A program made the translations under genes and the position numbers. The notes below the pieces were generated by a model, which ran no database searches, was not told the origin of the DNA, and worked only from the letters and a program-made list of their open reading frames with translations. Below, one piece after another: positions 9,560 to 55,863 of a DNA stretch of 64,000 nucleotides (position 1 is the stretch's first letter; every line of letters starts with the position of its first letter). The stretch lies in contig CBDCXM010000002.1 of the NCBI GenBank assembly GCA_965223855.1, forward strand, positions 192,001 through 256,000. The letters are read 5' to 3'. This DNA comes from Candidatus Multivoradales bacterium (GTDB taxonomy: Bacteria > Acidobacteriota > Thermoanaerobaculia > Multivoradales > JAHEKO01).

Positions 9560-12088
9560 CTAGATCCGCTCCATCAACCTGGCCAGCGCGCCGGTCAGAT
9601 CGGGAGTCGTCTCGAGCATTCCGCGCCAGGGGTCCTTCTTCTGCCGTCGGAGTCGTGTCGGCACCGTCCGGATGTCGAAACGGCTCGGGTCGAGCCTGTT
9701 GTTGACCTCGCGCCAGTGGAGCGGGGTCGAGACGGTGGCGCCCGGGCGCGGACGGACGCTGAAGGGGGAGACGAGCAACTTGCCGTGGCCGTTCTGGATG
9801 GCGTCGACGTAGACCTTCCCTTCGCGTCGTGCGGGGGAGCGGGCGATCGAGGCGGCTTCCGGCAGTTCCTGGCTGACGAGCTGTGCCAGGAGAAACGCCA
9901 ACTGCTTCGACTGCTCGTGGGTGCATTGCCCGCCGAGGGGCAGCAGCACGTGCATGCCGGTGGCACCGCTCGTCTTGGCGAAGGTCGGCAGGCCGATGTC
10001 TTCGCACAGCCGATGGAGGGCCCGGGCGACGGCGACGACCTGCTCGAAGGTGGCGTCCTTGGCGTCGAGGTCGAGGATGCACCAGTCTGGTGCCTGAAGC
10101 GCGCCGAGCCGGCTCGACCAGATGTGGAGAGGGATGGCGGCGGAGTTGACGAGGTAGGTCAGGGTGTCGATGTCGTCGCAGACGAAGTAGCGGGTCTCGT
10201 TGCCGTCGTCGTCCGACCAGACCGGTTCGGTGCGCACCCAATCAGGGGCGAACGAGGGGGCGTTCTTCTGAAAGAACGACTTGCCGAGATAGCCGTCCGG
10301 ATAGCGGTCGAGCACGAGAGGACGGTCGGTGAGGTAGGGGAGGAGGTGGTCGGCGACCGCGCGGTAGTAGCCGATCAGATCGCCCTTGGTGTAGCCCTCT
10401 TCGGGCCAGAAGACCTTCTCGGGTCGCGAGATCTCGACCTTGCGAGGCGGTTGCCGGAGGTCGGGTGCCTCGGCGGTTGGAGTCGGCGGGAGGTCGTCGC
10501 GGCGGCAGTCGGAGACGCGCTTGTCGTCTCGTATTCTCACGAAGACCGGGTGGCGCAGGTGCCCGTCGCGGGTGTACTCGGTGTATCTCGCCTCGATGAC
10601 CTGCTGCGGCTCCACCCAGATGTGCTCGTCGCCCTTCGGCACGCCGCCGCTGCAGGCCGGCTCGGGACGGCGGAACGGTTCCAGCGAACTCCGCAGCGTC
10701 TCGAGCTTGCGCTCGTCGAAACCCGTACCGATCCGACCGGCGTAGACGAGGGAGCCGTCTTCCGCGGCGACAGCGACGTGGAGGGCGCCGAAGCCGGCCC
10801 GACTCCCCTTGGGGCGGGTGAATCCGACCACAGCGAAGTCACCGGTCGCCGCCGCCCTGACCTTCACCCACGCCTGGGAACGACCTCCGCGATAGGGGGC
10901 GTTGGCCCGCTTGGCGACCATACCCTCGAGATCCATCCGCTCGATCTCGCGATAGAAGTCCTCGCCCCTGTCGTCGATGTGGTCGACGAACCTCACCGGT
11001 CCGTGAGGCGGAAGCACCTCGCGCAGGATCGCCTTGCGCTCGGCCAGCGGCAGCGGCCGGAGGTCGTACCCCTCGAGCGCCAGAAGGTCGAAGGCGAAGA
11101 GGGTGGCGGGCTGTCGTGCCGCAGCGCGCTGGACGTCGAGCGGCCGGCTCAGGCGCGCCCGCTGCTGCAGCGCCTGAAAGGAAGGGCGCCCCGACGGATC
11201 GAGGACGACGACTTCGCCGTCGAGCAGGAGGCCGTCGAACGGCAGCGAGCGGATCGCCAGGGCGAGATCGGGGAACAGGGCGGTCGCGTCGAGACCACTG
11301 CGATAGCGCAGGTGCACCTTCGGCGCTGCCGAGGGGCGGCCGCCACCGGAGCGGCCGGCGAGCAGACGGTAGCCGTCGTACTTGATTTCGAAGACCCACC
11401 CGCGGCGCGAGAAGGGCGCCGGCTCCAGGGTGGCGAGCATCGGCTTGAGCTTCGCCCCGTCCACCCGCCGCTTCGGTGCACCCAGCTCGTCGAGGGTCGA
11501 GCGCAGCGCCTTCGCCCGGTCCGAACCGTTTCGCATCTCTTCGACGGAGAGCCCGGAGAGCACCGATCGCGGGTCGAGGTCGGTGGCGTCCTCGCCCGTG
11601 GCTTCGGCGTCGGGCTTCTTGATCAGGAGCCACTCCTTTTCGCCGCGCGACGTCTTGACGAGCGTCCAGAGGCCTCGGAGCTTGTAGCCTCGCAGCTCGA
11701 AGAGCAGCTTCCCCTCGCGAGTTCCCTCGACCGGATCGAGATGGTGGATCGTCGGACCGCGGTCCCACAGGATCACCGCACCGGCGCCGTAGTTGTCCTC
11801 GGGGATAACCCCCTCGAAATCCCCGTACTCGAGAGGATGATCTTCCGTCAGAACGGCGAGTCGCTTTTCCGCGGGGTCGAGCGACGGGCCCTTCGGGACC
11901 GCCCACGAGCGAAGCACCCCCTCCATCTCGAGCCGCAGGTCGTAGTGCAGCCGCCGGGCCGAGTGTTTCTGCACGACGAAGAGGCCGGGGCGGGCGACCT
12001 CTCCGTCTCCGAACGGCTCCGGGGTCGCACCGGCGGAGCGCTTGCGACGATAGTCGTCGAGGGTCGAGGACGGGCGGTGAGGGCTCAT
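9560..12088 (-). CDS. ligD: DNA ligase D (phosphoesterase-ligase-polymerase), NHEJ
   Basis: PE domain: QKHSARRLHYDLRLE, WAVPKG, TEDHP. Ligase: FEIKYDGYR, EGMVAK, WVKV. Pol domain: RYPDG, DLD, KTSG..GMH, SVRPRPGA. Confidence 0.95.
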   Translation of the reverse strand: MSPHRPSSTLDDYRRKRSAGATPEPFGDGEVARPGLFVVQKHSARRLHYDLRLEMEGVLRSWAVPKGPSLDPAEKRLAVLTEDHPLEYGDFEGVIPEDNYGAGAVILWDRGPTIHHLDPVEGTREGKLLFELRGYKLRGLWTLVKTSRGEKEWLLIKKPDAEATGEDATDLDPRSVLSGLSVEEMRNGSDRAKALRSTLDELGAPKRRVDGAKLKPMLATLEPAPFSRRGWVFEIKYDGYRLLAGRSGGGRPSAAPKVHLRYRSGLDATALFPDLALAIRSLPFDGLLLDGEVVVLDPSGRPSFQALQQRARLSRPLDVQRAAARQPATLFAFDLLALEGYDLRPLPLAERKAILREVLPPHGPVRFVDHIDDRGEDFYREIERMDLEGMVAKRANAPYRGGRSQAWVKVRAAATGDFAVVGFTRPKGSRAGFGALHVAVAAEDGSLVYAGRIGTGFDERKLETLRSSLEPFRRPEPACSGGVPKGDEHIWVEPQQVIEARYTEYTRDGHLRHPVFVRIRDDKRVSDCRRDDLPPTPTAEAPDLRQPPRKVEISRPEKVFWPEEGYTKGDLIGYYRAVADHLLPYLTDRPLVLDRYPDGYLGKSFFQKNAPSFAPDWVRTEPVWSDDDGNETRYFVCDDIDTLTYLVNSAAIPLHIWSSRLGALQAPDWCILDLDAKDATFEQVVAVARALHRLCEDIGLPTFAKTSGATGMHVLLPLGGQCTHEQSKQLAFLLAQLVSQELPEAASIARSPARREGKVYVDAIQNGHGKLLVSPFSVRPRPGATVSTPLHWREVNNRLDPSRFDIRTVPTRLRRQKKDPWRGMLETTPDLTGALARLMERI

Positions 12089-12169
12089 GAAAAAGGGGGC
12101 TTTTCAGCGAGTAGGCGAGGTGGTCGAAAGTCGTTTGTTTATCAGACTTTATGGTACGCTTTCCTGACT

Positions 12170-13036
12170 ATGCCTGCACGTCCGCTCGGTTCCGGAATGA
12201 TCTCCTTCGGGCTCGTCGCCATCCCGGTGAAGCTCTACAGCACCGGGGAGAGTTCGTCTGCGGTGCGCTTCAACATGGTGCACGCCGACTGCGGTACCAG
12301 AGTCAAGTACCGCTACTACTGCCCGACCGACGATCGCTTCGTCGAGCGCGAAGAGATCTCGAAGGGGTACGAGTTCGCGAAGAACCAGTACGTCCTGTTC
12401 AGCGACGACGAGCTCAAGGTGCTGCAGCCGGAGGCTACGAACGCGATCGAGATCACCGAGTTCGTGCCACTCGAACAGGTCGATCCGATCTACTTCGAGA
12501 AGTCCTACTACCTCGGCCCCGGACAGGGCGGCGACAAGCCCTACCGGCTGCTGTCGAGTGTGATGAAGGAGACCTCACGGGCGGCTCTGGCGCGCTACGC
12601 CGCTCGCGGCAAGGGGTACCTGGTGCTGCTGCGCCCCTTCGAGAGCGGATTGATCATGCAGCAGCTCCGCTTCTCGGACGAGATTCGCTCGTTCGACGAG
12701 GTGCCGGTCGGTGATGCCGAGGTCGCCGATTCGGAACTCGATCTGGCACGACAGCTGGTGGAGCAGAGCGCTTCCGAGGCGTTCGATCCGAGCGGCTATC
12801 GAGACGAGGTGAGACACCAGGTGCTCGAGCTGATCGACAAGAAGGTGCAGGGCGAGGAGATCGTCGCGCCGCCGGAAGAGTCGCCGAAGGCTCAGGTCAT
12901 CGACCTGATGGAAGCACTCAAGGCGAGCCTCGGCGAGGAGACCGGTGAGAAGGCCGCAGCGAAGAAGGCGAGCAAACGGCCGAAGCGCGCCTCCAAGGCG
13001 ACACCCGGGAAGAAGACGAAGAGCAGCGGCGGCTGA
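12170..13036 (+). CDS. ku: Ku protein (NHEJ)
   Basis: GMISFGLVAIPVKLY, KGYE, VDPIYFEKSYYL, VIDLMEALKASL, basic C-terminal tail. Confidence 0.95.
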   Translation: MPARPLGSGMISFGLVAIPVKLYSTGESSSAVRFNMVHADCGTRVKYRYYCPTDDRFVEREEISKGYEFAKNQYVLFSDDELKVLQPEATNAIEITEFVPLEQVDPIYFEKSYYLGPGQGGDKPYRLLSSVMKETSRAALARYAARGKGYLVLLRPFESGLIMQQLRFSDEIRSFDEVPVGDAEVADSELDLARQLVEQSASEAFDPSGYRDEVRHQVLELIDKKVQGEEIVAPPEESPKAQVIDLMEALKASLGEETGEKAAAKKASKRPKRASKATPGKKTKSSGG

Positions 13037-13073
13037 GGGGCCGAGCCGGAAGGTGAGCGGGCCCGGATTCGGC

Positions 13074-13922
13074 ATGAGCCTCACAACGGACACCACCGCG
13101 GGCTTCCCGACCCGGCAGGTGCTGCGCATGCTCGATCTGAGCGAGGGGCGCCTGCGCTACTGGGTGCGTAGCGGCTTCGTCGATCCGGCGCGCGGCCCGG
13201 GCAATCGATACCGCTTTCGGTTTCAGGATCTGATCGTCCTGCGCACCGCTCAGGCGCTGATGCAGGCCGGCCTCCCTGCACGCCGGGTGCGGTTGGCCCT
13301 CGACGCCCTGCGGCGCGAGCTGCCCGTAGGGCGCAGTCTGTCGGCCGTTCGGGTCCTCGCGAAGCGCGGTGAGGTCGTCGTTCAGGAGGGGGGGCGGTCA
13401 TGGGAACCCGCGACCGGCCAGTGGCTGCTCGATCTCGACGCCGGCGAGCTGGCGGCGGCCGCCGAGCCGCTGTCGCGAGCCGCAGTGGCGCGACTGCCCG
13501 AGGATCGGGAGGAGTTGATCGCGGCCGAATGGTACGAGCTGGGCCTCGATCTGGAGGCGGTACTGCCCGAGGAGGCCGAGCGGGCCTACCGCCACGCGAT
13601 CGATCGCGATCCGTCTCTGGCAGCGGCCTATCTGAACCTCGGCCGCCTGCGTCACGAGGAGGGCGATCTCGAGGAGGCGGAGGCGCTCTACCGTGGGGCT
13701 CGAGATTGTTCTCCCACGGACCCGACGGCGGCTTTCAATCTGGGGGTCGTGCTGCAGGATGCGGGCCGCTGGGCCGAAGCGGCGAAGGCATACCGCTGCG
13801 CCATCGACCTCGACTCCGGCTACGCGGACGCCTACTTCAACCTGGCCGCGGTCTACGAGCAGCTCGGCGAGGCTGCCGTCGCTCTGCAGAGCCTGCAGGC
13901 GTATCGAAGACTGATCCGCTGA
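13074..13922 (+). CDS. MerR-type HTH plus TPR-repeat protein
   Basis: N-terminal LRYWVRSGFVDPARG..YRFRFQDL is a MerR-like wHTH. C-terminal TPRs (AYLNLG, AAFNLG, AYFNLA). Confidence 0.8.
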   Translation: MSLTTDTTAGFPTRQVLRMLDLSEGRLRYWVRSGFVDPARGPGNRYRFRFQDLIVLRTAQALMQAGLPARRVRLALDALRRELPVGRSLSAVRVLAKRGEVVVQEGGRSWEPATGQWLLDLDAGELAAAAEPLSRAAVARLPEDREELIAAEWYELGLDLEAVLPEEAERAYRHAIDRDPSLAAAYLNLGRLRHEEGDLEEAEALYRGARDCSPTDPTAAFNLGVVLQDAGRWAEAAKAYRCAIDLDSGYADAYFNLAAVYEQLGEAAVALQSLQAYRRLIR

Positions 13923-13965
13923 GCGCCCCTCCGGGGGAGGTCAGGGGCCCTGCTCCGGTTGCCGC

Positions 13966-14232
13966 TCAGAGTTCGCGCAGGTACTTGCCGGGCTTGAAAC
14001 GGACCGTCTTGCCGGGCGCGATCTCGACCTCGACTCCGGTCTTCGGGTTGCGGCCGATGCCACGCTTGCGATCCCGAACCTGGAAGACACCGAAGCCTCG
14101 CAGCTCGATTCGCTGACCCTCGCCGAGGGCCGCCTTGAGCGAACCGAAGATGGTCTCGACGGCGCGGGCGGCGACCGCTCGCGGGATTTCAGCCGCCTCG
14201 GCGACGCGGTTGACGAGGTCAGCTTTGATCAT
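13966..14232 (-). CDS. HU/IHF-family DNA-binding protein
   Basis: MIKADLV...IELRGFGVF...GRNPKTG...VRFKPGK. Confidence 0.95.
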   Translation of the reverse strand: MIKADLVNRVAEAAEIPRAVAARAVETIFGSLKAALGEGQRIELRGFGVFQVRDRKRGIGRNPKTGVEVEIAPGKTVRFKPGKYLREL

Positions 14233-14257
14233 GGGGACTCCGGCGAGCGGAGAGCGG

Positions 14258-14286
14258 AGTGTAGCAACGGCCCCATGGGGTGTCAA
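14258..14286 (-). promoter_or_regulatory. Sigma70 promoter for the HU gene
   Basis: TTGACA-N17-TACACT with an extended TG on the minus strand. Confidence 0.75.
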
Positions 14287-14362
14287 TCGCCCTCGGGGGA
14301 GCCTAACTTCAAATTTCCCAGCGGTTTGAGTGACCCTCGGCCCAGTCGCTGCGGACGCCCTT

Positions 14363-15640
14363 TCAGGCCGGATCCGGTGCCGATCCTGCCGTGACCTCAC
14401 CGCCTGTGCGGTGGGCGAGAATCCACCGTTCGAGCGCCATCCCGGTGAGGATCGACCCCTGGCGCAGCGTCGCCGACAGGCCCGGCGATGCGTCGAGGCC
14501 GACCGTGACGGCGAGCCCCGCCAGACGCCCCCCGACGTCGATTCTCGTCAGGACCGCCTCGGCTCCGGCTTCGGTGCCCAACCGATCCGGCAGCCCGGCC
14601 GCCTCGGCGGACGGGTCGAGTTCGACCGTCGCCACCGGCTGCGTCCCCACGAGTTCTCGCCAGTGCTTGGAGAGACCGGGTCCGAGCAGAAGTTCCCGTG
14701 TCGAAGATGAGTCGCTTTCGACCTCACCGGCGAGCCAGCCTCTCAGGAGTGCCCCCTCCGGCCGGAACAGAAGGGTCGAATCGCCGAAGCCCGTCAGCAG
14801 GTCGAGGAAGGCGCGGCAGACTCCCGTCGGCGAGTCCGCCCTCCGCAGCTCGCGATCGAGCTCGGCGAGGTCCCTGCCCTCGGCGGACGGAGGGAGCCCG
14901 CCGTCGGAAGCTGCCTGCCGCTCATCGAAAACCTCCGGAACCTCGCTCCCTTCCGACGAGTCTGTCTCGGACGAACCGAAGATCGCTGCTCGCTCGGCCG
15001 GGGTCAGCTCGATCTTGCGATGCGGGTCGGGCTCCGTGGGCGGGCGGAGTCGGTGGCGAACCGAGCGCCGTTCCGGCACGCCGAGCGGCGGACTGGCGAG
15101 GTCGAAGCGGGTCACGCGACGTTCCACGAGAGGCTCGGTCGGGCCGGTCTCCTGAGGAGGCTGCACGAGGCCGCGCTCTAGCCGATCCAGCAGGTGACGG
15201 AGGTGCCCCGTCATCGGCACCGAGTAGTGCGTCTCCAGCGCCTCCGCCAGTCTCGGCTCCGAGGCGACATGCAGTCGCACCCGCTGGCTGAGCACGAACG
15301 CGAGCTCGTCCAGCTGGCCGGGGTCGAGGGCGCTGGCGACCGCGAGATCGATCCGGCTGGGACCGGCAGCGAACGGTACTGCGGAGTAGCGTTGGGCCAA
15401 CTGGGGGCTGAACAGCCCGATGACAGCCTCTGGGATCCCGGCGAGGTCGGCCCGACGGGCGGGCGGCAGGCCGTGATGCCGGGAGAGGGCGTCCTCGAGC
15501 TGAGGCTCCGTGAGATAGCCGGCCTCGAGCAGCGAGGTGTCGATCCGGCCGCCGATGCGGGCGGCGCGGGCTTCAGCTTCGGTCAGCGCGGATTCCGGTA
15601 GCTCGACGAGCTCGCGGAGGATGTCCACGATCGAGGTCAA
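14363..15640 (-). CDS. T2SSE_N/MshEN-like N-terminal domain protein without an ATPase domain
   Basis: GGRIDTSLLEAGYLTE..L...HG...P.LA.RY.AVP...LAVA..LD...LDELAF. No Walker A motif seen. Confidence 0.65.
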   Translation of the reverse strand: MTSIVDILRELVELPESALTEAEARAARIGGRIDTSLLEAGYLTEPQLEDALSRHHGLPPARRADLAGIPEAVIGLFSPQLAQRYSAVPFAAGPSRIDLAVASALDPGQLDELAFVLSQRVRLHVASEPRLAEALETHYSVPMTGHLRHLLDRLERGLVQPPQETGPTEPLVERRVTRFDLASPPLGVPERRSVRHRLRPPTEPDPHRKIELTPAERAAIFGSSETDSSEGSEVPEVFDERQAASDGGLPPSAEGRDLAELDRELRRADSPTGVCRAFLDLLTGFGDSTLLFRPEGALLRGWLAGEVESDSSSTRELLLGPGLSKHWRELVGTQPVATVELDPSAEAAGLPDRLGTEAGAEAVLTRIDVGGRLAGLAVTVGLDASPGLSATLRQGSILTGMALERWILAHRTGGEVTAGSAPDPA

Positions 15641-24335: not shown

Positions 24336-26666
24336 CTAGAGCTTCTTGACGTCGGCGATCACCGCGTCGCCGGCGTTGAAGGTCACCTTCTTCGGCCGCG
24401 AGGGAAGCGGGAACTCGAAAGTCTTGCGTGGCTGATCGACGAACAGGAGCAGCTCACCCTTCCTGTCCTTGCCGAAGTCGACCTCGAGCGGGATCCCCAT
24501 CCTGAATCCGGGGGCGACGTCCTCCTGTTCGACCTCCACCCGCAGGACCGTCTGCCCCTCGTGGCGGACGATCTCGTGGCGCCAGCGATACGTAGGGATC
24601 TCGGCGCCGTAGACCCACTGGTCGAAGAACCACGACCAGTCGGCCGGCACGTTGCGCTCGAGCGCCGCCTGGAAGTCCTCGGTGCTGGCGTAGCCGCCTG
24701 CGTTCGTGGCCACGAAATCGCGCAGGGTGGCGATGAAGGCGTCGTCCGACTTGGTCATCAGCCTCGTCATTGTACGGAGCATGTGCAGCACCATCGCCCC
24801 CTTGTAGTAGGCGAGAGTGGAGTAGGCGGTCGGGGCCTCCCCGACGCCGGCCCGGAAGCCGTGGCCGATCGGTCCCATCCGCTCCGCCCCCCGCGCCGAC
24901 AGCAACGCATAGCCGGGGCGGGCGAAGCTGCTGAACGCCGCCTCGAGGGAGCCACGGACCTCGTTGTTGTAGGCGGTGATCGCCTTCTGGAACTGGCGCG
25001 CGCCGTCGTCCATCGAGGCCTCGACGAACATCAGGGCGGTGTACTCGGCGAAGCCCTCGCTCAGCCACTGGTCGCGGTAGCTGTTCCAGCCGACGATGTG
25101 ACCCCACCACTGGTGACCGACTTCGTGGGCGCGAAAGCCCTCCACGGCGGCTGCCGAGTCGACGGCGGTGGTGAGCTCGGAGAGGTGGAGAAAGCCCGGG
25201 AAGGCCTGGCCGTGGCCGGCCGGAATCAGGGTGGCGAAGAACTGCTCGTCGGCTAGCGGCGAAGCGAGCAGGTTCTGCAGGAAGTTGGTGGCGTTGACCG
25301 TGTCACCCGCGACGTCGTCGATCCGCTCTTCGTTGAGGACTCGCCTGCCGTCGCTGAGGTCTCCGACGGTCACGATCCGCGGCAGACCTTCGAACTCCAG
25401 CTCCTTGCGGTAGCCGGTCTTCTGCATCGCGAAGGTGGCCATCTTGGCGGGACGGTCGATCTCCCAGACGCTGATCTTGCGGTCGCCTTCTTCACGGCTC
25501 TCGACCAGCGACCCCATCGACTGCAGGTCGTAGCGATCGTCGGTCGTGAAGGTGAAGCGGGCGGTGTGGCGATCCTTCAGGCCGTTGAAGTCCAGCAGGC
25601 CCGGGTACCACGAGCGGCCGGAGGCGTAGCGGGGGAGCGACAGCTCGTAGTAGACGGTGAGCGAGTAGCGCTCGCCGGCCGCGAGCGAACGTCCGGTCAG
25701 GACGATGAGATCGCTGGCGTAGACTTTCTTGTCGATCGTCGAGCTGCGAGAGCCGATGTGGTCGCGAACGAAGTCGAGCTCCTCCCCGGCGGTATCGACG
25801 ACCTTCTCGACCTTGGCACGCGACCGCAGGTAGAGGGGCACGGCCGTCAGCCCTTCGCGCAGGATCTCGACGTCGAGCCGTGCCTCGAACTTGCCGGCGA
25901 GCCTTCGAGGCGCCTGCGAATCGGTCTCCGAGAGGTCGCCGTCGAGATCGACGTGCTGGATGTCGAGTGGGGGGCGCTCGCGGCCGGAAGGTCTCCCATC
26001 TTCGCGACGGTCTTCTTCGCGGTCGAGCGAGAGCCAGCTCTCGACGTAACTGTGCTTGCGATTGAACTGCAGCACGGTCAGCTCCTCGCTGCGGGAGCTG
26101 TCGAAGGTGACCGTCACCCAGCCGTGCTCGCTGGTCTCGATCTCGGCGCGCCAGTAGAAGCCCTCGGGGTCTCCCAGGGCAGCGAGGATCCGAGCGTCGA
26201 TGTCGAGACGCCGCAACTCGAGCGCGTGCTCGTGTCGCTCGTCGTAGATCGCTTCGCGCTCTCCATCCGCCGGTGATGCGCCGAAGCTGGCGAACGGCGG
26301 CCCGCCCGAGGCACGCAGCACCATGCGCTCGAAGGTCAGTTCGAGTTCTTCGACCGCGGGGTCCCTCAGGAAGCGGCGAAGCTGTCGCAGCTCGACTCTG
26401 TCCGGCACCGGGATCGTCACCTTCCCGCGGCCGGAGAAGTAGAGGCCGGCCGGGCTCTCGCCGGGGCCGAGCTGGAGACGCACCGTCCCGGAGTCGAGCC
26501 GCCAGCGGGAGACGTCGACCTCCCACTCGATGCCGACGGACGGCACCGGGACTTCCGGACCGAGCTCGTGGCGGGTGAGGGTCTCGTAGGCGGCGAGGTC
26601 GAGCGTGCTCGAGGCAGCGGGCGCCGCGAGAAGTACCAGCAGCAGACAGCATAGATTTCGAGACAT
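24336..26666 (-). CDS. M1-family (gluzincin) aminopeptidase, secreted
   Basis: HEVGHQWWG...WLSEGFAEY, YYKG..VLHMLR, FF.QWVYG, signal peptide. Confidence 0.88.
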   Translation of the reverse strand: MSRNLCCLLLVLLAAPAASSTLDLAAYETLTRHELGPEVPVPSVGIEWEVDVSRWRLDSGTVRLQLGPGESPAGLYFSGRGKVTIPVPDRVELRQLRRFLRDPAVEELELTFERMVLRASGGPPFASFGASPADGEREAIYDERHEHALELRRLDIDARILAALGDPEGFYWRAEIETSEHGWVTVTFDSSRSEELTVLQFNRKHSYVESWLSLDREEDRREDGRPSGRERPPLDIQHVDLDGDLSETDSQAPRRLAGKFEARLDVEILREGLTAVPLYLRSRAKVEKVVDTAGEELDFVRDHIGSRSSTIDKKVYASDLIVLTGRSLAAGERYSLTVYYELSLPRYASGRSWYPGLLDFNGLKDRHTARFTFTTDDRYDLQSMGSLVESREEGDRKISVWEIDRPAKMATFAMQKTGYRKELEFEGLPRIVTVGDLSDGRRVLNEERIDDVAGDTVNATNFLQNLLASPLADEQFFATLIPAGHGQAFPGFLHLSELTTAVDSAAAVEGFRAHEVGHQWWGHIVGWNSYRDQWLSEGFAEYTALMFVEASMDDGARQFQKAITAYNNEVRGSLEAAFSSFARPGYALLSARGAERMGPIGHGFRAGVGEAPTAYSTLAYYKGAMVLHMLRTMTRLMTKSDDAFIATLRDFVATNAGGYASTEDFQAALERNVPADWSWFFDQWVYGAEIPTYRWRHEIVRHEGQTVLRVEVEQEDVAPGFRMGIPLEVDFGKDRKGELLLFVDQPRKTFEFPLPSRPKKVTFNAGDAVIADVKKL

Positions 26667-26678
26667 GCATGGATTCTA

Positions 26679-26857
26679 GCCCGGGCTTCTCATGCCGGTG
26701 TGCTCTGGTAGGTTGTAGGTTGCTGGAGATACAAGGCTTCCGTTCGTGAGCACCACAGACATAGCCGTAGCTACGTCGAGGAGCGCAGCGAACGGAAAAC
26801 GAAGTAGATTCAGTGACATACGGCCTACCAGAGCGCGGTGGCGTGAGAAGTCCGGGC
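26679..26857 (+). repeat. 179-nt rod-like inverted repeat (REPIN-like element or structured ncRNA)
   Basis: About 54-bp outer stem with about 10 G.T pairs and 4 mismatches, a perfect inner stem TTCCGTTCG/CGAACGGAA and an apical TAGC/GCTA hairpin. Confidence 0.75.
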
Positions 26858-26971
26858 CAGCCCGCACTTCTCCCGACGTCTCCGCAGCAGTCCCGAAGAA
26901 GGCGTCCTCCCGTGCCGTTCTCGCCTCTCGCAAGGGACCTGCTCCGGTCAGCACTTCGGCGCTTCCAGAGC

Positions 26972-26999
26972 TTGCAAAAGGGGCCGCGATCAGTACAAT
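26972..26999 (+). promoter_or_regulatory. Sigma70 promoter of the rpsF operon
   Basis: TTGCAA-N16-TACAAT. Confidence 0.7.
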
Positions 27000-27044
27000 T
27001 CCGCGTTCCGACAGCGGAGTCGTCCGGCTTCGCCCCATCCCGCA

Positions 27045-27085
27045 CTTCCTGTTCCCGCCGAGGGGACTTCACAGCCATAGGGAGG
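27045..27085 (+). promoter_or_regulatory. S6:S18-binding leader RNA of rpsF
   Basis: CTTCCT pairs with AGGGAG(G), sequestering the SD. Inner stems CTGT/ACAG and TCCC/GGGA. Unpaired CC just 5' of the SD helix, as in the described S6:S18 element. Confidence 0.65.
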
Positions 27086-27090
27086 CACCA

Positions 27091-27453
27091 TTGAGACTGT
27101 ACGAGTTGATGTTCGTCGTGGACCCTCGGGTTCCCGATGAGGAGGTCGTCGCTCTGACCGACGACGTCAAAGAGCTGCTCACCGAAGGTGGCGGCGAGAT
27201 CGCCAAAGAGCAGAGCTGGGGCAAGCGCAAGCTCGCCTACGAGATCAACAAGCTGACGGAGGGGAAGTACGTCCTGCTGCACGTCCGCGTGCCGGAGGGC
27301 AAGACTCCCTTCCCGTTGCTCGAGCAGCGCATGCAGCAGAACGAGAAGATTCTCCGATTCCTGACCGTGCGCACGGACGTGGGCCGCATGCGGATGCCGT
27401 TCGAGCCTGACCAGGCGCCTGAGCCGGCGGTTGCCGCAGGGAGTGAGAGCTGA
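27091..27453 (+). CDS. rpsF: 30S ribosomal protein S6
   Basis: TTG start after [17 protein letters not shown]...[10 protein letters not shown]...G.Y...ILRFL. Confidence 0.95.
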
Positions 27454-27686
27454 TGCCTCGCAAGAAGGACAAGTACCCCCGCCGTCGCAAGGTGTGTCGC
27501 CTGTGTGCCGACAAGAAGACATCGGTCGACTACAAGGACACACGCTTCCTCCAGAACTACATCGTCGAGCGGTCGAAGATCCTCCCGCGGAGGATCTCCG
27601 GCAACTGCGCCCGCCACCAGAGGATGGTGCAGCAGGCGATCAAGCGCGCCCGTCACGTGGCACTGCTGGCGTACGTTTCGGACTGA
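27453..27686 (+). CDS. rpsR: 30S ribosomal protein S18 (Cys-containing form)
   Basis: RRKVC.LC...DYKD...[15 protein letters not shown]...IKRAR. Confidence 0.97.
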
Positions 27687-27696
27687 GGAGACAGCC

Positions 27697-28143
27697 ATGC
27701 AACTCATTCTTCTCCGTGACGTGCGGAGCCTCGGCACCCGTGGCGATGTCGTCAACGTCAAGCCGGGCTACGCCCGCAACTACCTCATTCCCAAGGGCTA
27801 CGGCCTTCTCGCCACGCCGGCGAACGTCAACTACTACGAGCAGCAGAAGAAGAAGATCGACGCTCGCCACGTGGAGCAGCGAGACGCCGCTGCTGCGCGT
27901 GCCGCCGAGATGGCCGGAATCCACCTCGAGATCGCCAAGCGCGTCGGCGACTCCGAGACGCTCTACGGCTCGGTGACGCCGGCGGACGTCGAGGCTGCGC
28001 TCGCCGAGAAGGGGGTCGAGATCGACAAGCGTCGTCTCGATCTCGGAGGCGGGATCAAGACGCTGGGCGATCACGTCGTGCGGATCGATCTGCATCCCGA
28101 GGTGATCGCGGAAGTCCAGCTCACCGTCGTCGCGGAAGAGTAG
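27697..28143 (+). CDS. rplI: 50S ribosomal protein L9
   Basis: MQLILL.DV..LG..GDVVNVKPGYARNYLIP, LYGSVT, IKTLG. Confidence 0.97.
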   Translation: MQLILLRDVRSLGTRGDVVNVKPGYARNYLIPKGYGLLATPANVNYYEQQKKKIDARHVEQRDAAAARAAEMAGIHLEIAKRVGDSETLYGSVTPADVEAALAEKGVEIDKRRLDLGGGIKTLGDHVVRIDLHPEVIAEVQLTVVAEE

Positions 28144-28147
28144 TCGT

Positions 28148-28657
28148 TTGAGCGACGAGGCCGAGCGGGACCTGTCGCCGGGCCTCGAAGTCTTCGTCGA
28201 AGGTCGCACCGACGCCGCCGAGGACTGGCGCCGGCTCTGGGAGGGGGACCTCGAGTTCCCCATCCGCAGCGAGTCGGGCCTGCGCGGGCGCGTCGTGGTG
28301 GCGCTGAAGCGGCTGCTGCGACCGTTCGTCCGAGCTCCTCAGGCGGACCTGTGGGAGCGCCAGCGGGTGTTCAACCTCGTTATGGTGCGCTCCCTCGAGC
28401 GAATCGTCGCGCTGCAGACCCAGGCAGACGAGATCCACCGCGACCTGACCGAGGTCCGCGCCGACCTCCTGAAGGACATCAAGGAGCACCACCGCCGGCT
28501 GGCACATCTCGAAGAGTTCAAGCGCACCGGTCTCGGCGACTTCGCGCGTCACACCGACGGCCTCTTCGCGCACGTCGATCAGAAGCTCGACCGCTATCGC
28601 CGCGAAAGCCGGGAACTCGCGGAGAGGATCCGGTCGATGCTGCCCGACGACGGCTGA
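28148..28657 (+). CDS. Hypothetical coiled-coil protein
   Basis: ORF 4 nt after rplI, with helical/coiled-coil composition and coding-like codon usage. Confidence 0.6.
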   Translation: MSDEAERDLSPGLEVFVEGRTDAAEDWRRLWEGDLEFPIRSESGLRGRVVVALKRLLRPFVRAPQADLWERQRVFNLVMVRSLERIVALQTQADEIHRDLTEVRADLLKDIKEHHRRLAHLEEFKRTGLGDFARHTDGLFAHVDQKLDRYRRESRELAERIRSMLPDDG

Positions 28658-35931: not shown

Positions 35932-37047
35932 TCAACCTCCGGCCGACAACGTCAGCAACGGCGCCGCGCTCGACGGCTCGGACTGCAGGGAGAAGAGGTA
36001 TTTCAGCAGCCCGAAGCTGGTCTTCGAGTTGAGGTCGCTGTCGTCGAGGTAGAACCAGTGGCCGCGGTAGAGGACCTTGACGAAGGCGTTGGTCGGCATG
36101 TCGGGCGACGTGTGGACCCGGAGCAGTCTGCCGGAGAGTTCGTCCCAGTCGAAGCGGCTGCCGTCGGTGTGGCGGGTGACGGTGACCCAGCCGGCTTCTT
36201 CGTGGGCGGATGGGACTTCGACCGATTGTGAAAGGAAGAACAGCGTGCCCATCAGCGAGCGGCCGACGACTCCGATCTCGCTCTCCCCGCGATCGAGGAC
36301 GGCGTCGCTGATCTCGAACTCGGAAGCGCCGGTAGGCAGCTCGAGAAGCTCCCGAAGTCGCCGCAGCTTGCTCTCGAGCCCTTCGTAGCCCGCGGTCGAG
36401 GTGTGAGGAAGGAACGACAGCACGACCCGCTGCCCGCCCTCTCCGGCAGCGGAGCGCCGTCGGATCGTCGCCTGGATCCAGCCGGCGACCTGGAGCTCCC
36501 GCAGCAGCGCGCTCGCCTCCTGGAACTCGCGGTAGTGCGGCGGCTCGTAGGACGGCGTCGGCCCCGCGGCGCTCGGGGCGTTGCGCAGTCCGTTGATCTG
36601 ATGGACACAGCACAACATCAGCCGCTCGATGCTCCAGCCCGACTGGGACAGCAACGTCAGCACCCGGGGCTCGAACGGCGCCAGCACCCGCTGGGCGAAG
36701 GCGGTGCCGTGGAGCGGGGTGTAGGAGATCGTCGGCGTCTCGGTGTAGGCGACACCAAGCGACGCTCCGGCACTGTCGCCGCCGGCGCCAAGATCGAAGT
36801 CGCCGCCGGCCCCCGCCGCCGCCTCGAACGTGAGCTGGGTGGTGACGCCGGCAACCTCGAGGAACTGCGGGTTGTCGCGATAGCGCAGCCTCACGAGGTT
36901 GAGGAGCATCTGCTCGTTCCACGAGCGTGAGATCGCCTCGTTGTAGCTGATCCGCGCCCCGGGCAACGACTTCGGCCCCAGGTGGGCTCCGCAGCCCGCC
37001 AGGGCGAGCGGTATCAGGATGAGGGTGAGTCGTCGGATCTTCGTCAC
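35932..37047 (-). CDS. Conserved hypothetical lipoprotein
   Basis: AAAGGA SD, GTG start, lipobox LAGC. YNEAI..SW.EQ.LLN.VRLRY.D, PTISYTPL.G, YRGHWFY.DD.D..SK. Confidence 0.75.
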   Translation of the reverse strand: MTKIRRLTLILIPLALAGCGAHLGPKSLPGARISYNEAISRSWNEQMLLNLVRLRYRDNPQFLEVAGVTTQLTFEAAAGAGGDFDLGAGGDSAGASLGVAYTETPTISYTPLHGTAFAQRVLAPFEPRVLTLLSQSGWSIERLMLCCVHQINGLRNAPSAAGPTPSYEPPHYREFQEASALLRELQVAGWIQATIRRRSAAGEGGQRVVLSFLPHTSTAGYEGLESKLRRLRELLELPTGASEFEISDAVLDRGESEIGVVGRSLMGTLFFLSQSVEVPSAHEEAGWVTVTRHTDGSRFDWDELSGRLLRVHTSPDMPTNAFVKVLYRGHWFYLDDSDLNSKTSFGLLKYLFSLQSEPSSAAPLLTLSAGG

Positions 37048-37208
37048 TTTTGGTCCTTTCGGGCAGGCGGGACGGCTGCTCTGGAACTCGCGAGCATGAG
37101 CTCCTCGAAGCCTCAGGCGTCGTACGGCTCGATTTGTCACCCGATGCTGGTCTCTGCCGGGAGAAGGTGCAAGTGCCTGGCACCCCCCGAGGGTGGCGGG
37201 TCCAGGCG

Positions 37209-37904
37209 TTACGGTGTGGGCTGGTCGTTGCTGAAGGCGTCGCTGCGCGGATCCCAGAACGGATCGTCGAGGCCCAGATCGGCGAAGATCGCCACCATCT
37301 CGGCAGGATCGGGACGGCGGCTGTCGGGCTGCAACCGGGTCGAGTACCAGGTTTCGGCCAGGTGCCAGAGCTGATCCATCGTGACCAGCGGGCGCTTCGG
37401 GTGATTCCCCGCTGTGCACCATTCGACGACCGCCTCCTCCGACCGGAAGAAGAGCATGTTGTGTCAGGTGAAGACGAGGTCGTCCCACCAGTGCGCGGCC
37501 GGGACGAGGCAGTGGAACAGCCAGTCGCTCGGCGGAGGGCCGTCGGCACCGACCTCGAGAGACAGAGGCTCGAGCGTCTGCTCGCAGCGCGAGCGCACCG
37601 AGCAGGATTGCTGCAGCGCCGCCGGGATGCCGAGCGCGTCCCAGGCACAGTTGGCGAAGTAACGGCGGTCCGCGGACTCGACGAAGTGCTGGGTCTCGGC
37701 GGCGGAGAACGGGGGTGCCATGCGAATGCGACGACCGCCGGCCTCGAGGTAGAGCACTCTGGCCACCCGGAGTCGACCGAATCCGGCGACGACGTCGTCC
37801 TCCACGACGCCGAGCTGCGAGGCGAGTTGGCGCGGGGTGGGTGCGTCGCCGGTGTCGGCGAAGTGCCGGTAGACGGCCAGCTTGAGATCGAGGTCGAAGC
37901 TCAT
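37209..37904 (-). CDS. Organomercurial lyase MerB-like protein, candidate selenoprotein (in-frame TGA at 37464-37466)
   Basis: N-terminal wHTH, MAPPFS..T.H, NCAWDALG (Cys96/Asp99 equivalent), then WWDDLVFT-TGA-HNMLFFRSEE continuing in frame into ORF 37209-37457. Confidence 0.85.
37433..37452 (-). promoter_or_regulatory. Putative bacterial SECIS for the MerB-like gene
   Basis: CUUCUUCC[GGUC]GGAGGAGG: an 8-bp stem with a G-starting tetraloop 19 nt after the UGA. Confidence 0.6.
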
Positions 37905-38341
37905 CGGGAGCCTCGTCGTGCGAGGGTCGTGAGAACCGCGCCGTAGGAGACGACGACCGCTCCCTCCCACGCCGTCCAGAGGGTCGGCATGCCGGCGCGC
38001 AGGTCGATGACGAACAGAGTCGCTCCCAGCAGGCCGAACGCCGCTCCGATGTAGAGGATCACTGTGCGGAGCCGCTCGATGTCGCCGGCGACCACCCAAA
38101 GCAGGCCGCCGAGCAGCGCGTAGAGGGCCGAGCTCGAACGCGCGAGGTAGTCGGCGATCGGCAGGTCGGGGTAGGCACCGATGCCGAGCCGGTCGTGGAT
38201 CGCCCGGAACCACGACGTCGGTGCCCAGACGAAGATCAACGCAGTCAGAGAGAGGGTGCCGATGGCCCGCAGCACGAAGGCGAGCAGGCGGTCGCTGCCG
38301 GCCGTGCTGGGTGTGCGAGTGTGTGCAGGATCTTCGTTCAC
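37901..38341 (-). CDS. Small 4-TM membrane protein, translationally coupled to the MerB-like gene
   Basis: Hydrophobic helices and YLARSSSALY. Its TGA overlaps the MerB-like ATG (ATGA). Confidence 0.7.
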   Translation of the reverse strand: MNEDPAHTRTPSTAGSDRLLAFVLRAIGTLSLTALIFVWAPTSWFRAIHDRLGIGAYPDLPIADYLARSSSALYALLGGLLWVVAGDIERLRTVILYIGAAFGLLGATLFVIDLRAGMPTLWTAWEGAVVVSYGAVLTTLARRGSR

Positions 38342-38438
38342 CGGTGGCTCCGACGGACGGGAGGGTAGCAGGCGCGCGCCGGAGGCGACCTTCTCCCGAC
38401 GATGGCCGGTGGGTCGATAAGCTCGCCGCCGCCACGCC

Positions 38439-40256
38439 ATGCGACCGGAACTGATCGAGCAGACTCGCCGCCTCCCGGACAAGCCCGGGATCTACGTCTT
38501 TCGCGATGCCGAGGGGCGGCCGCTCTACGTCGGCAAGGCGAAGTCGCTGCGCAAGCGGGTCGCCAGCTACCGGCGGCGCGCGGACGACCTGCGCCTCGCG
38601 ACGATGGTCGCCGAGGCGTCCGAGGTCGAGACGGTCGTTACCGGCTCCGAGGCCGAGGCGCTGCTGCTCGAGAACAACTGGATCAAGAAGCATCGGCCGC
38701 GTTACAACGTGCTGCTGCGCGACGACAAGACCTACCCCTACGTGAAGCTGACGATGCGAGACGGCTACCCTCGGATCACCTTCACCCGCCGCATCCGCCG
38801 TGACGGCGCCGAGTACTTCGGTCCTTTCCTCCCGGGCGGCCTGGCGCGCCGGGCGATCAAGCTGACGCAGAAGCTCTTCGGCATCCGGGTCTGCACGATC
38901 GAGATCGACGGTTCGTTGCCGCGCCCGTGCCTCTACTACGACATGAAACGCTGCTTGGGCCCGTGCGTCGACGGGCTGACGACGCAGGACGCCTACGACG
39001 CGGCGGTCGAGGACGCGCGGCTCTTCCTCGGCGGCCGGACGCAGGAGCTGACCGCCCGCCTCAAGCGCGAGATGAAGGCCGCCTCCGAAGCCCTCGAGTT
39101 CGAGCAGGCGGCGCGCCTGCGCGACACGCTTCTCGACATCGACTCGGTGACCCAGCGACGCAGCCTCGCCTCGCTGTCGGGAGAGGACGTCGACATCTAC
39201 GGCTGCCATCTGGCCGGCGGCAATGCGGCGGTCACCGTGCTGGTGATGCGGGGCGGCCGGGTGCTCGATCGTCGCGAGCTGTTCTGGGAGCGGCGCCCCG
39301 ACCTGACCGCTGAGCGCCTGCTGTCCGAACTGCTGCCGCAGGTCTACGAGCGGACCACCTTCATCCCCAAGGAGATCCACCTGCCGGTGGCGATCGACGG
39401 TGGTGACGCGCTGCTCGACTGGTTGAGTGAACGCAAGGGCGAGAAGGTCTACCTGCGCTGGCCGGTGCGCGGCAGCAAGGCGCAGCGGCTCGGGATTGCG
39501 CGCCGCAACGCCGAGCTCGCCCATCGACGTCGCTTTCGCACCGACCTTAACGAGATGCGGGGCGCCGAGGCGCTGGCGAAGGCGCTCCGGCTGCCGGAGC
39601 CGCCGCAGCGCATCGAAGGAATCGACATCTCCAACCTTCAGGGGACGGAGATGGTCGGCTCGCTGGTCGTGTGGGAGGGGGGGCGGATCCTGAAGAAGGA
39701 CTACCGCAGTTTCAACATCTCGAACCTCTCCGGGCAGGACGACTTCGCGGCGATCGCGCAGGTGGTGCGGCGGCGGTACACGCGGGTGCTCGAAGAAGTC
39801 GGCTCGATGCCCGACCTGGTGCTGATCGACGGCGGTCGGGGGCAGCTCAACGCCGCGCTCGAGGCGCTCGCCGAGCTGGGCGTCGAGGAGACGCCGATCG
39901 TCGCCCTTGCCAAGAAAGAGGAGGAGCTCTACCTGCCGGCAACGCCGGAACCGCTGCGGCTCGCGCGCTCGAACGCCGGTCTCAAGCTGCTGCAGCAGGT
40001 GCGCGACGAGGCGCACCGCTTCGCCGTCGATCGCCATCGCAGGCGCCGCTCCCGCACCGCCCTGACTTCGCGCCTCGACGGGCTGCCGGGGATCGGCAGC
40101 TACCGGCGCAAGGCGCTGCTGAAGCGCTTCGGCAGCGTCGAAGGGGTCCGGCAGGCGTCGCTGGCACAGCTGCAGGATCTCGTCGGGCCGGTGCTCGGTC
40201 ACCGGGTCTTCACACTGCTGCGGGCCGAGGAGGAGAGTCGCGATGCCGACGCCTGA
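38439..40256 (+). CDS. uvrC: Excinuclease ABC subunit C
   Basis: GIY-YIG (PGIY..LYVGKAKSLRKRV), Cys cluster, RIEGIDISN, DGGRGQ, RDEAHRFA, HhH. Confidence 0.97.
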   Translation: MRPELIEQTRRLPDKPGIYVFRDAEGRPLYVGKAKSLRKRVASYRRRADDLRLATMVAEASEVETVVTGSEAEALLLENNWIKKHRPRYNVLLRDDKTYPYVKLTMRDGYPRITFTRRIRRDGAEYFGPFLPGGLARRAIKLTQKLFGIRVCTIEIDGSLPRPCLYYDMKRCLGPCVDGLTTQDAYDAAVEDARLFLGGRTQELTARLKREMKAASEALEFEQAARLRDTLLDIDSVTQRRSLASLSGEDVDIYGCHLAGGNAAVTVLVMRGGRVLDRRELFWERRPDLTAERLLSELLPQVYERTTFIPKEIHLPVAIDGGDALLDWLSERKGEKVYLRWPVRGSKAQRLGIARRNAELAHRRRFRTDLNEMRGAEALAKALRLPEPPQRIEGIDISNLQGTEMVGSLVVWEGGRILKKDYRSFNISNLSGQDDFAAIAQVVRRRYTRVLEEVGSMPDLVLIDGGRGQLNAALEALAELGVEETPIVALAKKEEELYLPATPEPLRLARSNAGLKLLQQVRDEAHRFAVDRHRRRRSRTALTSRLDGLPGIGSYRRKALLKRFGSVEGVRQASLAQLQDLVGPVLGHRVFTLLRAEEESRDADA

Positions 40257-47719: not shown

Positions 47720-47851
47720 TTCGGCCGCCGTCGCGGCGGAGGGATGGCGCTCGTCGTCCCCCGACTCGCCGGCGGCCGCCGGTGGCGTAGTCTTGCCCCC
47801 GGGCTCCGGCGGCGAGCGGCCGCAGGAGCGACCGGAAGAGGAGACCGAGGG

Positions 47852-49842
47852 ATGTCGAAGAGAGCCACGCCCGACGCGGTGCAGCCCGAGACCGCGGGAG
47901 CCGACGAGTTCGCCGAAGAGCCGCTCGACCTGGCGTCGATCTTTCTCGGCCCGAAGGGCGAGAACGCCGACTACTTCGAGCGACTGCTTCTCGAGGCGCT
48001 GCGCGATCACGTCTTCTGGCGTCGCAACTTCCACCCCGAGGACGGTTTCCTCGTCGGCGACCGCGGGAAGCGTAGCGACGCCTATCAGCGCAGCCTCGCC
48101 GTGCTCTCGGAGGAGCTGCTGAACCTGCTCGGTGAGCTCAAGGCGGGCGTTCCGTTCTTCAGCCCGCGCTACATCGGCCACATGAACTCCGACCTGACGA
48201 TGGCGAGTCTCATCGGCTACTTCGCGACGATGCTCTACAACCCGAACAACGTCGCAGCCGAGGCCTCGCCGGTGACGACCCGCATGGAGCTCGAGGTCGG
48301 CCGGCAGCTCGCCGAGATGATCGGCTATCCGGTGGAGACCCACTGGGGCCACCTGACGTCGGGCGGCACCGTGGCCAACTTCGAGGCGTTGTGGGCGGCT
48401 CGCAACGTCAAGTACCTCCCCGTCGCCCTGCGCGGGGCGGCGCGCTCGCTCGGACTCGACGATCTCGAGGTGGCGCTGCCGACGGGAGAGAGAGCGCGGC
48501 TGATCGACCTCGACCTGTGGCAGCTCCTCAATGTCGAGACAGGAGCGACCCTCGATCTGGCGGCCGACCTCGATGCGGCCGCCGGATCTCAGGAGGCGGC
48601 GGCCGAGGCGGTCGCCGAACACTCTCTCGCTCGCCTCGGCTACCAGGAGTATGCGCGTCGGCTGACGGCCGCTTTCGGCAATGCGCTCCCCGACAGCGTC
48701 GTCCTCGTGCCGTCGACGGCGCACTACTCGTGGGAGAAGATCTGCCAGTCGTTGGGGATCGGCTCTCACCAGCTCGTCCACGTCCCCGTCGACCGGCAGT
48801 TCCGCATGGATGCCGGGGCGCTGGAAGAGACCTGTCACCGTCTCGCCCGGACCCACCACAGCGTGATCGCCTGTGTCGCGGTGCTCGGCACGACCGAGGA
48901 GAGCGCGGTCGATCGGGTGGACCTGATCGCCGATGTGCGACGGCGCCTCGCCCGGGAGCACGGACTCGCCTTTCACCTCCACACCGACGGCGCCTGGGGC
49001 GGCTACGCGATCTCGGTCACCCGCGACCGTTCCGGTGCACGGCGCGAGCATGCCGCGGCGCTGGCGGACGCGCGGCCTCACGTCTGGCCGCGCGAAGGGG
49101 TCTACCGCGCGCTGTGTGCCGTCGAGCGCACCGACTCGACGACCATCGACCCGCACAAGCTGGGCTTCGTCCCCTATCCGGCGGGGGCGATCGTCTTCCG
49201 TGACCGGCGGGTGCGGGATCTCCTCGCGGTCGACGCCCCCTATCTGTTTCACCGCGGTGCTTCGGAGTGGGGGTACATCGGCCGCTTCATCTTCGAGGGT
49301 TCGAAGCCGGAGCGGCGGCCGCCGGGGTCTGGATGTCGCACAAGGTGCTGCCGCTCGACGAGCGCGGCTACGGTCGACTGATCAGCGAGACGTCGCGCGG
49401 CGCCCTGGCGCTGTGGCAGCACCTGCGCGAGCGCGACTTCGGGGCGTTCCGGCTCGTCCTGTTGCCGGAGCCCGACCTCAACATCGTCTGCTTCGCCGTC
49501 GCCCATCCCAAGCTGCAGTCGCTCGAAGCGGCCAACGCCTTCGTCGATCGCCTCTACGCCGCCATGAGCATCCAGCCCGAAAACGACAGCCGCCGCCTCG
49601 ACTACTTCGTCACCAAGACGGTGCTGCGCTGCGGCGAGTACGGCAGCTCGATCGATCCGCTGGCCGAGGCGCTCGGCTTCGATGCGGCCGAATGCCTCGC
49701 GGCGGGCGGAGTCAGCGTGATCCGGTGCACCCTCATGGACCCGTTCGTCGCTTCGCGTCGCGGAGAGGTGGACTACATCGAAGGCTTCGCCACCAATCTC
49801 GAGACGATCCTCACCCGCGAGCTGGACGCCGTCGCGTCCTGA
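47852..49842 (+). pseudogene. Group II PLP-dependent decarboxylase (tyrosine-decarboxylase-like), split by a 1-nt frameshift near 49310
   Basis: GHMNSD, MLYNPNNV, HLTSGGT, HTDGAWGGY, DPHK. EGSKP continues as GAAAAGVWMSH in the -1 frame. Confidence 0.8.
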
Positions 49843-55463: not shown

Positions 55464-55860
<397 letters not shown>

Positions 55861-55863
55861 CGT

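Follow-up and report, generated by a model that had tools for sequence, protein, structure and literature searches.

The 64,000-nt stretch of Candidatus Multivoradales DNA analyzed here (contig CBDCXM010000002.1; the window, below, means this whole stretch) raises the question of whether a TGA codon on its minus strand ends a gene or encodes an amino acid. The codon, at 37464-37466, interrupts a reading frame at 37209-37904 that resembles the organomercurial lyase MerB, and it aligns with a catalytic cysteine of that enzyme. The explanation that best fits our observations as a whole, to which we give a probability of roughly 0.8, is that the gene encodes one MerB-fold protein in which UGA is decoded as selenocysteine (Sec) and which cleaves organometals. 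That this is a genuine Sec-encoding gene of the MerB-like family appeared highly probable from the sequence comparisons described below.

Translation of the minus strand from the ATG at 37902-37904 to the TAA at 37209-37211 gave 231 residues, with a sole internal TGA at codon 147 in the context AAHWWDDLVFT-TGA-HNMLFFRSEE. This confirmed the coordinates and the letters of the initial annotation, which had recognized one frame split by the open reading frame (ORF) track. In standard ORF calling the frame was broken into two parts, an N-terminal piece that stops at the TGA and an ORF of 82 aa (37209-37457). The 84 codons past the UGA (37209-37463), which probably belong to the same protein, are thus either called as this separate ORF or ignored. 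The G+C content at third codon positions was 0.91 before the TGA versus 0.86 after it. According to a composition filter, coding-like third-position G+C flanked just three TGA codons in the window, the one at 37464-37466 among them. The other two were ordinary junctions of consecutive same-frame genes and were discarded as Sec candidates, and the filter indicated no further selenoprotein genes in the 64-kb window.

The same interruption was found in related genomes. We compared the best 80 of 469 confirmed stretches, taken from one genome per species and 58-66% identical to the query. The TGA was present at the aligned codon in all 80 related loci and in the window; it was found by pattern in 79 loci, and the remaining one (L052) was located separately. 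Because these loci are those most like the query, the result describes a uniformly TGA clade and not necessarily the whole subfamily. According to their record titles, the loci were labeled Acidobacteriota (25), Verrucomicrobiota (18), Eiseniibacteriota (10), Chloroflexota (8), Gemmatimonadota (8) and Planctomycetota (2), with nine singletons, which amounts to at least 13 phyla by label, and their G+C content ranged from 52 to 72.5%. The tblastn matches in the 80 loci ran through the stop and covered query residues about 1-225. In a codon alignment of 80 sequences (79 loci and the window), residues W+15, C+16, P+22, R+24, W+33, W+39 and Y+40 after the TGA were conserved, and codons from +11 to +49 varied synonymously. 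The conserved R+24 was encoded by CGG in 45 sequences, CGA in 13 and CGC in 11, and Y+40 by TAT in 48 and TAC in 32; similar variation was seen at L+32 and R+43. Conserved residues with varying codons are the signature that translation in frame past the TGA would leave.

The read-through protein, with C in place of U (P0001), matched the Pfam family MerB (PF03243) with 100.3 bits (cut-off, 27). The match placed residues 66-187 on profile positions 1-125 of 126 and extended across the TGA. Cys96, Asp99 and Cys159 are described as essential in MerB in the accessible text of PMC8261052 and of the Haft preprint. In the window protein, the motif N85-C86-A87-W88-D89 (37638-37652, minus strand; C86 is TGT and D89 is GAC, read directly) supplied the equivalents of the first two, since both phmmer and profile alignments set C86 and D89 on Cys96 and Asp99. 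In each of the three MerB alignments shown, the family profile set U147 opposite Cys159, and the U147 column coincided with the single Cys of MerB2, the best profile match (E 4.9e-24). The single-sequence phmmer alignments wavered: two of them paired U147 with Cys160 and one with Cys159. In alignment A3, C86, W88 and H131 were nearly invariant, and the U147 column was one of two invariant columns. The initial annotation had proposed a single MerB-family gene of 231 aa, in which NCAWD (residues 85-89) represents Cys96/Asp99 and the UGA falls on Cys159; the family match and the profile alignments bear out all three assignments.

The predicted structure also agreed with a MerB fold. AlphaFold2 was supplied with an alignment of 67 rows, comprising the window protein, 32 read-through translations of related loci and 34 Cys-type representatives, from which rows without Cys in the U147 column were omitted. 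The read-through model had a predicted local distance difference test score of 94.8 and a predicted template modeling score of 0.90. The part after the TGA was packed confidently, with block means of 93-99 for residues 141-220. A Foldseek search of the PDB gave 11 matches at E<=0.001, all of them MerB or MerB2, with template modeling (TM) scores of 0.50-0.72 and 22-25% identity. MerB of plasmid R831b (PDB 3F0P, 3F2F and others) and MerB2 (5C17) resembled the window protein with TM scores of 0.58-0.72 at the same identity. The equivalents of MerB Cys96, Asp99 and Cys117 are C86, D89 and C107, and the third catalytic position is occupied. Unlike MerB, the window protein has a Sec codon instead of Cys159, has no second Cys (Cys160), and carries about 40 extra conserved C-terminal residues (188-222) that AlphaFold2 folded confidently. 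The gene also differs from canonical MerB in scoring below the NCBIfam cut-offs and in lying outside a mer operon. An identification as canonical MerB was rejected on the missed NCBIfam equivalog cut-offs and the absence of Cys159 and of a mer operon.

More distant relatives showed which residue occupies the U147 column when the gene is not interrupted. A word-indexed search gave 4200 protein clusters at E<=0.001, and nearly all of the best 120 were 146 residues long, ending just before the TGA. These entries were named 'organomercurial lyase', 'alkylmercury lyase' or 'hypothetical protein'. When cluster representatives at 50% identity were searched exhaustively with HMMER, 1526 relatives were obtained at E<=0.001. 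Among the best 150 of these, 67 ended exactly at the site, 6 started at query residue 150, the ATG past the TGA, 57 spanned the site and 20 were other fragments; the cut-off representatives are protein records without DNA, and the term 'Sec-type' is applied to them from their end point. Cys occupied the U147 column in 44 of the 53 full-length representatives (at least 195 residues; 27-39% identical). The Cys-type members of the subfamily (e.g. P0123, P0126 and P0128; 220-235 aa) were full-length and collinear with the window protein at that identity, and carried the motif T/A-C-x-x-[ML]-L where the window has T-U-H-N-M-L, with Cys instead of Sec. The expectation that the column would hold only Cys or TGA was thus upheld by the 80 related loci and the 44 Cys-type relatives, and it failed in the remaining nine. 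The conserved TGA, the Cys column and the family profile together suggested that U147 is a Sec codon equivalent to MerB Cys159.

We used the first 146 residues for a quick maximum-likelihood tree, which included the window, 56 of the 67 truncated rows and 40 of the 44 Cys rows; fragments were omitted. The window fell in an all-truncated set of eight rows with a Shimodaira-Hasegawa-like approximate likelihood ratio test value of 95. The Sec-type and Cys-type rows were interspersed, with 16 changes versus 31 with shuffled labels, and none of 500 shuffles was as low. The well-supported branches force just 2 Sec/Cys changes, and 50 of the 94 inner branches were weak. We also noted that the Asp99-equivalent (D89 in the window) was Cys in 13 of 54 aligned rows (CAWC; P0123-P0269). 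These rows would have a three-Cys site and might form a sub-group whose metal chemistry differs.

The sequence following the UGA contains a candidate Sec insertion sequence (SECIS). Its upper stem-loop, CUUCUUCC[GGUC]GGAGGAGG, occupies 37433-37452 on the minus strand and starts 11 nt past the UGA. The 5' arm CUUCUUCC (37452-37445) and the 3' arm GGAGGAGG (37440-37433) form a stem of 8 pairs, 2 of them G-U, around the loop GGUC (37444-37441), the first G of which lies 19 nt after the UGA. In the available text of PMC13188914, the bacterial SECIS model has an apical loop of 3-9 nt with G in the first two loop positions, a UGA-to-loop distance of 16-37 nt and a minimum free energy (MFE) of -7.5 kcal/mol or lower. 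The 4-nt GGUC loop, its G in positions 1-2, the 19-nt spacing and the energy of the window hairpin agreed with the model in all four respects. The 8-bp hairpin and its fit to the model, both put forward in the initial annotation, were therefore reproduced. The MFE was -7.5 kcal/mol or lower in all 80 sequences, and the GGUC loop at 19 nt was present in 77 of the 80 MFE folds.

The hairpin alone is no better than chance, as its stability shows below. The comparative evidence exceeds chance because the TGA was kept in all 80 related loci and the hairpin codons had no synonymous variation. The core UUCUUCC-GGUC-GGAAGA was kept in 80 of 81 sequences (the 80 loci and the window). Codons +5 to +8, encoding Phe-Phe-Arg-Ser, were TTC in 79/79, TTC in 80/80, CGG in 80/80 and TCG in 80/80 sequences. 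Arg and Ser are six-fold degenerate, and elsewhere in the gene the Phe, Arg and Ser codons had 0.6-2.0 bits of codon entropy in the same alignment. The invariant bases of +5 to +8 make up the 5' arm and the loop, and the 3' arm consists of Glu-Glu codons (GAA/GAG). The search patterns cannot have produced this invariance, because the back-translated patterns lay upstream of the TGA. The sequence that departed from the core was L052, labeled Calditrichota, with UUCUUCA[GUUC]UGAAGA. Here the loop-closing pair changed from C-G to A-U and the hairpin was kept in register. A further observation concerns the bases between the UGA and the hairpin. The codon directly after the UGA was AGC in all cases of Ser (39/39), and this AGC and the bases of the ATG at +3 (window 37466-37455, minus strand) may serve a lower SECIS stem or the UGA context and not a protein constraint.

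The E. coli fdhF SECIS is similar in being a coding-region hairpin just past the UGA with an identical GGUC apical loop, which we take to be the SelB-binding site in E. coli. The fdhF loop starts 18 nt after the UGA, as read from the K-12 gene, versus 19 nt in the window. In contrast, the stem sequences are unrelated, and the window hairpin has no bulged U in the upper stem. Because the GGUC loop is the same and the spacing is near-identical, Sec insertion may be directly testable in E. coli.

One related locus connected the gene to Sec decoding. L031, from a metagenome-assembled genome labeled Chloroflexia, contained a tRNA-Sec gene with the anticodon TCA at 9172-9267 on the minus strand (ARAGORN; Rfam RF01852, 58.6 bits versus a gathering threshold of 47). 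It lies about 500 nt downstream of the MerB-like orthologue (8001-8675), and its presence shows that at least this carrier decodes Sec. A selA- or selB-sized ORF was not obvious beside this tRNA-Sec on the contig, which ends at 10249. ARAGORN scans of 60 of the 80 loci found tRNA-Sec in L031 alone. In L044, ARAGORN reported a 97-nt 'tRNA-Gly (TCC)' of unusual length at 1526-1622 on the minus strand, with its anticodon at position 39, and no Rfam tRNA matched it at the gathering threshold.

If UGA is decoded as Sec, the hairpin 11 nt past it, with its stem of 7-8 bp and its GGUC loop, would recruit SelB-GTP-Sec-tRNA(Sec) as the ribosome nears the UGA. Sec would be inserted at codon 147, and translation would run for 84 more codons. 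The thiolate of Cys86 and the selenolate of Sec147 would then most likely bind an organometal between them, and Asp89 would protonate the carbon so that the carbon-metal bond is broken, as in MerB. The default candidate for the substrate would be an organomercurial such as methylmercury. The gene stands alone without a mer operon, and any metal product left bound would need to be handed on to thiols of the cell or to an unlinked partner. Judged from sequence, C-Hg protonolysis has about an even chance of being the physiological reaction. We set the odds for organomercurials no higher because of the missing mer operon, the missing conserved partner and scores far under the MerB cut-offs.

Several observations weigh against the Sec-containing organometal lyase. 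The stability of the hairpin was unremarkable for G+C-rich sequence: the 43 nt from the UGA had an MFE of -13.4 kcal/mol (z=-0.87), 40 of 200 shuffles folded at least as well, and the 27-nt hairpin core had z=-1.16 versus shuffles. An Rfam scan of 37150-37950 (E<=10) contained no SECIS family and gave only a chance small RNA match with an E value of 2.8. Because the stem was almost invariant, the covariation support came from one sequence, L052. No selA, selB, selD or tRNA-Sec was found in the 64-kb window, out of a contig listed at 289,878 bases; within the window, 43 ORFs were compared with Pfam and the DNA was scanned for tRNA-Sec. The nine full-length relatives without Cys in the U147 column had W in two cases and N, S, H, R, A, Y and a gap in one each. 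In 79 of 80 sequences an ATG lies 3 codons past the TGA, and because it is conserved, separate initiation of a C-terminal piece is possible on sequence alone. With respect to the chemistry, none of the NCBIfam models reached its cut-off on the window protein, and those for canonical MerB were missed widely, with 54.2 versus 193 (NF009710) and 49.2 versus 200 (NF033555), so that MerB-like chemistry is an extrapolation. Hg-Se bonds are also very strong and could hinder product release.

The last two points bear on function, and the alternative that survives best is a real MerB-fold selenoprotein with a role other than organomercurial cleavage. Its substrate might be a different organometal or an organometalloid, or it might bind or transfer metal or selenium. 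The absence of mer genes among the 43 window ORFs, the absence of a conserved neighbor in the 80 sequences and the scores far under the NCBIfam equivalog cut-offs would all be expected of such a protein, and the near invariance of H131 and W88 in the subfamily is compatible with it. The portion of the work of Haft and Gwadz on the MerB-like selenoprotein SaoL that we could consult likewise leaves its substrate uncertain on account of Sec at the metal site. Against this stand the MerB catalytic positions, which hold Cys, Asp and Sec/Cys, and a fold that matches mercury-bound MerB structures; no result indicated an alternative chemistry. We consider a non-mercury role quite possible, at somewhat less than even odds.

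The conserved ATG at +3 would gain a direct meaning if the TGA were a true stop and the locus a split MerB-like gene, expressed as a 146-residue protein and a separate 82-residue protein. Gene callers predicted both pieces, and the 67 representatives ending at the site and the 6 starting at residue 150, among the best 150, have the form that such a split predicts. The active site would then lose its second nucleophile, yet 44 of 53 contiguous relatives carry Cys at that position. The invariant CGG for Arg and TCG for Ser in the hairpin and the compensatory pair in L052 would be left unexplained, a stable hairpin directly after a start codon would be an odd design, and by eye no Shine-Dalgarno-like purine run was seen in the 15 nt before the +3 ATG. 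A split gene therefore seems improbable. Still less likely is that TGA is read as a standard amino acid such as Trp or Gly, through a changed code or general read-through. The W found at the column in two full-length representatives and in P0003, and the label of L076 (Patescibacteria group), would suit such recoding. However, TGA is an ordinary stop in the source organism. It was the commonest genuine stop in the 68% G+C window, ending 26 of the 37 Pfam-supported genes, with TAG ending 11 and TAA none. The TGA-carrying loci belong to many phyla in which the standard code is used, and homologues have Cys at this residue rather than Trp or Gly. A pseudogene, or a TGC/TGT codon turned into TGA by a sequencing or assembly error, has nothing in its favor except that a stop codon is there and can practically be dismissed, given the TGA in 80 of 80 independently assembled loci, a frame otherwise intact over 231 codons and coding-like composition on both sides.

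A Sec-containing MerB-like family had been reported before, as the initial annotation stated. This is SaoL, a selenoprotein of the SAO system (NCBIfam NF040728; Haft and Gwadz, 2022 preprint and J Bacteriol 2023). The accessible parts of these publications describe SaoL as a protein of 213 residues with CU at 161-162, encoded in a nine-gene SAO operon and present in 52 of 15,511 representative genomes, all of them anaerobes and skewed to Firmicutes. SaoL shares with the window protein the PF03243 MerB fold, Sec at the Cys159 position, truncation at the UGA in databases and an uncertain substrate. In the window family, this truncation leaves 146 of 231 residues. The window protein differed from SaoL in several respects. 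It scored 39.4 bits versus a cut-off of 140 on the SaoL model and matched over residues 45-118 only. The window clade has the motif T-U, with Thr before U147 in all 80 sequences counted, versus C-U in SaoL, and it has neither the nine-gene SAO neighborhood nor any conserved neighbor. Its hosts were labeled mostly Acidobacteriota, Verrucomicrobiota, Eiseniibacteriota, Gemmatimonadota and Chloroflexota, whereas those of SaoL are exclusively anaerobes. The hidden Markov model score, the motif and the neighborhood thus ruled out that the window protein is SaoL.

In the literature we found no MerB-like selenoprotein other than SaoL; supplements were not covered by this search, and priority is uncertain. 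In the sections consulted of the 2022 and 2026 selenoproteome reviews, SaoL was the sole MerB-type entry. MerB was not mentioned in the main texts, as far as accessible, of the 2008 GOS paper and the 2016 ISME J comparative study, nor was a MerB-like clade in the available descriptions of deep-Sep and BSepDB. Sec at the MerB Cys159 position is therefore already established, and a widespread stand-alone T-U clade with a near-invariant SECIS appears to be unrecognized. A more ambitious proposal is that this clade, stand-alone in hundreds of mostly soil species, is a second Sec-containing MerB-like group that acts as a high-affinity, mer-independent demethylase of methylmercury or another organometal. 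We regard that proposal as tentative and, taken in full, rather unlikely.

With a family model and corrected annotation, hundreds of gene calls would be repaired. Should the enzyme prove to cleave methylmercury, the demethylation potential of soils has been undercounted, and merB surveys would miss such demethylation because the database entries stop at the UGA. In Table 1 of the widest mer-gene survey (PMC8261052, of which a part was available), no MerB is recorded in Acidobacteria or Verrucomicrobia; these are the phyla in which the gene was most often found here. Since Cys and Sec alternate naturally at a catalytic residue that binds metal, the family would also allow the benefit of selenium in C-metal cleavage to be tested.

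The gene neighborhood differed from the arrangement that had been proposed. A gene for a 146-aa membrane protein lies upstream at 37901-38341 on the minus strand, and its overlap with the start of the MerB-like gene by ATGA, which the initial annotation had described, is real (ORF stop 37901-37903, ATG 37902-37904). The protein showed four hydrophobic peaks in a hydropathy plot, at 22-38, 72-88, 94-112 and, more weakly, 124-141. Neither Pfam nor NCBIfam assigned it to a family. In the Atlas it matched unnamed clusters of 142-151 aa, with weak leads to BphX and DUF4345 at 0.91. Beyond it lies a divergent uvrC (38439-40256), and downstream of the MerB-like gene is a lipoprotein-like ORF without a family. 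A promoter and terminator scan of 36900-38600 gave no match. As had been noted from the sequence, merR, merA and merT are not nearby. Pfam searches detected no mer domains (merR, merA, merT, merP) among the 43 window ORFs or in representatives of the 12 commonest neighbor clusters.

The overlap had been interpreted as a two-gene organometal module, and the related loci contradicted this. Upstream DNA of at least 600 nt was available in 73 of the 79 other loci. A homologue of the membrane protein was present upstream in 1 of the 79, L002, labeled Thermoanaerobaculia, where the two genes are adjacent and do not overlap. L002 shares this neighbor because it is a close relative, with uvrC 81% identical. 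By a crude hydropathy count, 2 of 80 sequences had small upstream ORFs with at least three hydrophobic segments. All-against-all clustering of the flanking ORFs gave no neighbor family shared by more than 7 of the 80 sequences. The commonest neighbors were unrelated enzymes, namely an amidohydrolase, an esterase, a methyltransferase, an alcohol dehydrogenase and an alpha/beta hydrolase. The searches of related loci led us to reject the membrane protein, the downstream lipoprotein-like ORF and uvrC as conserved partners. The 40 matches to the downstream ORF were an artefact of its out-of-frame overlap with the MerB-like gene. With every neighbor family confined to at most 7 of the 80 sequences and a membrane homologue in a single other locus, the MerB-like gene is a stand-alone unit across the clade, and its pairing with the lineage-specific membrane protein gene is a local accident of gene order.

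Other features of the window were also noted. A bacterial RNase P RNA of class A (55465-55862, plus strand, 295.9 bits) lies between DnaJ/TPR and LD-carboxypeptidase genes. Two overlapping ORFs in different frames, at 47744-49381 and 49267-49842 on the plus strand, contain a pyridoxal-dependent decarboxylase domain and the matching 'tyrosine decarboxylase C-terminal' domain; their split could reflect a frameshift, an error in sequencing or programmed shifting. The intervals 12088-14363 and 26666-28148, of 1.5-2.3 kb, held at most one short coding-like ORF each by the composition filter. A full-length LigD with phosphoesterase, ligase and primase-polymerase domains is encoded at 9560-12088 on the minus strand, which indicated a non-homologous end-joining system in the source organism.

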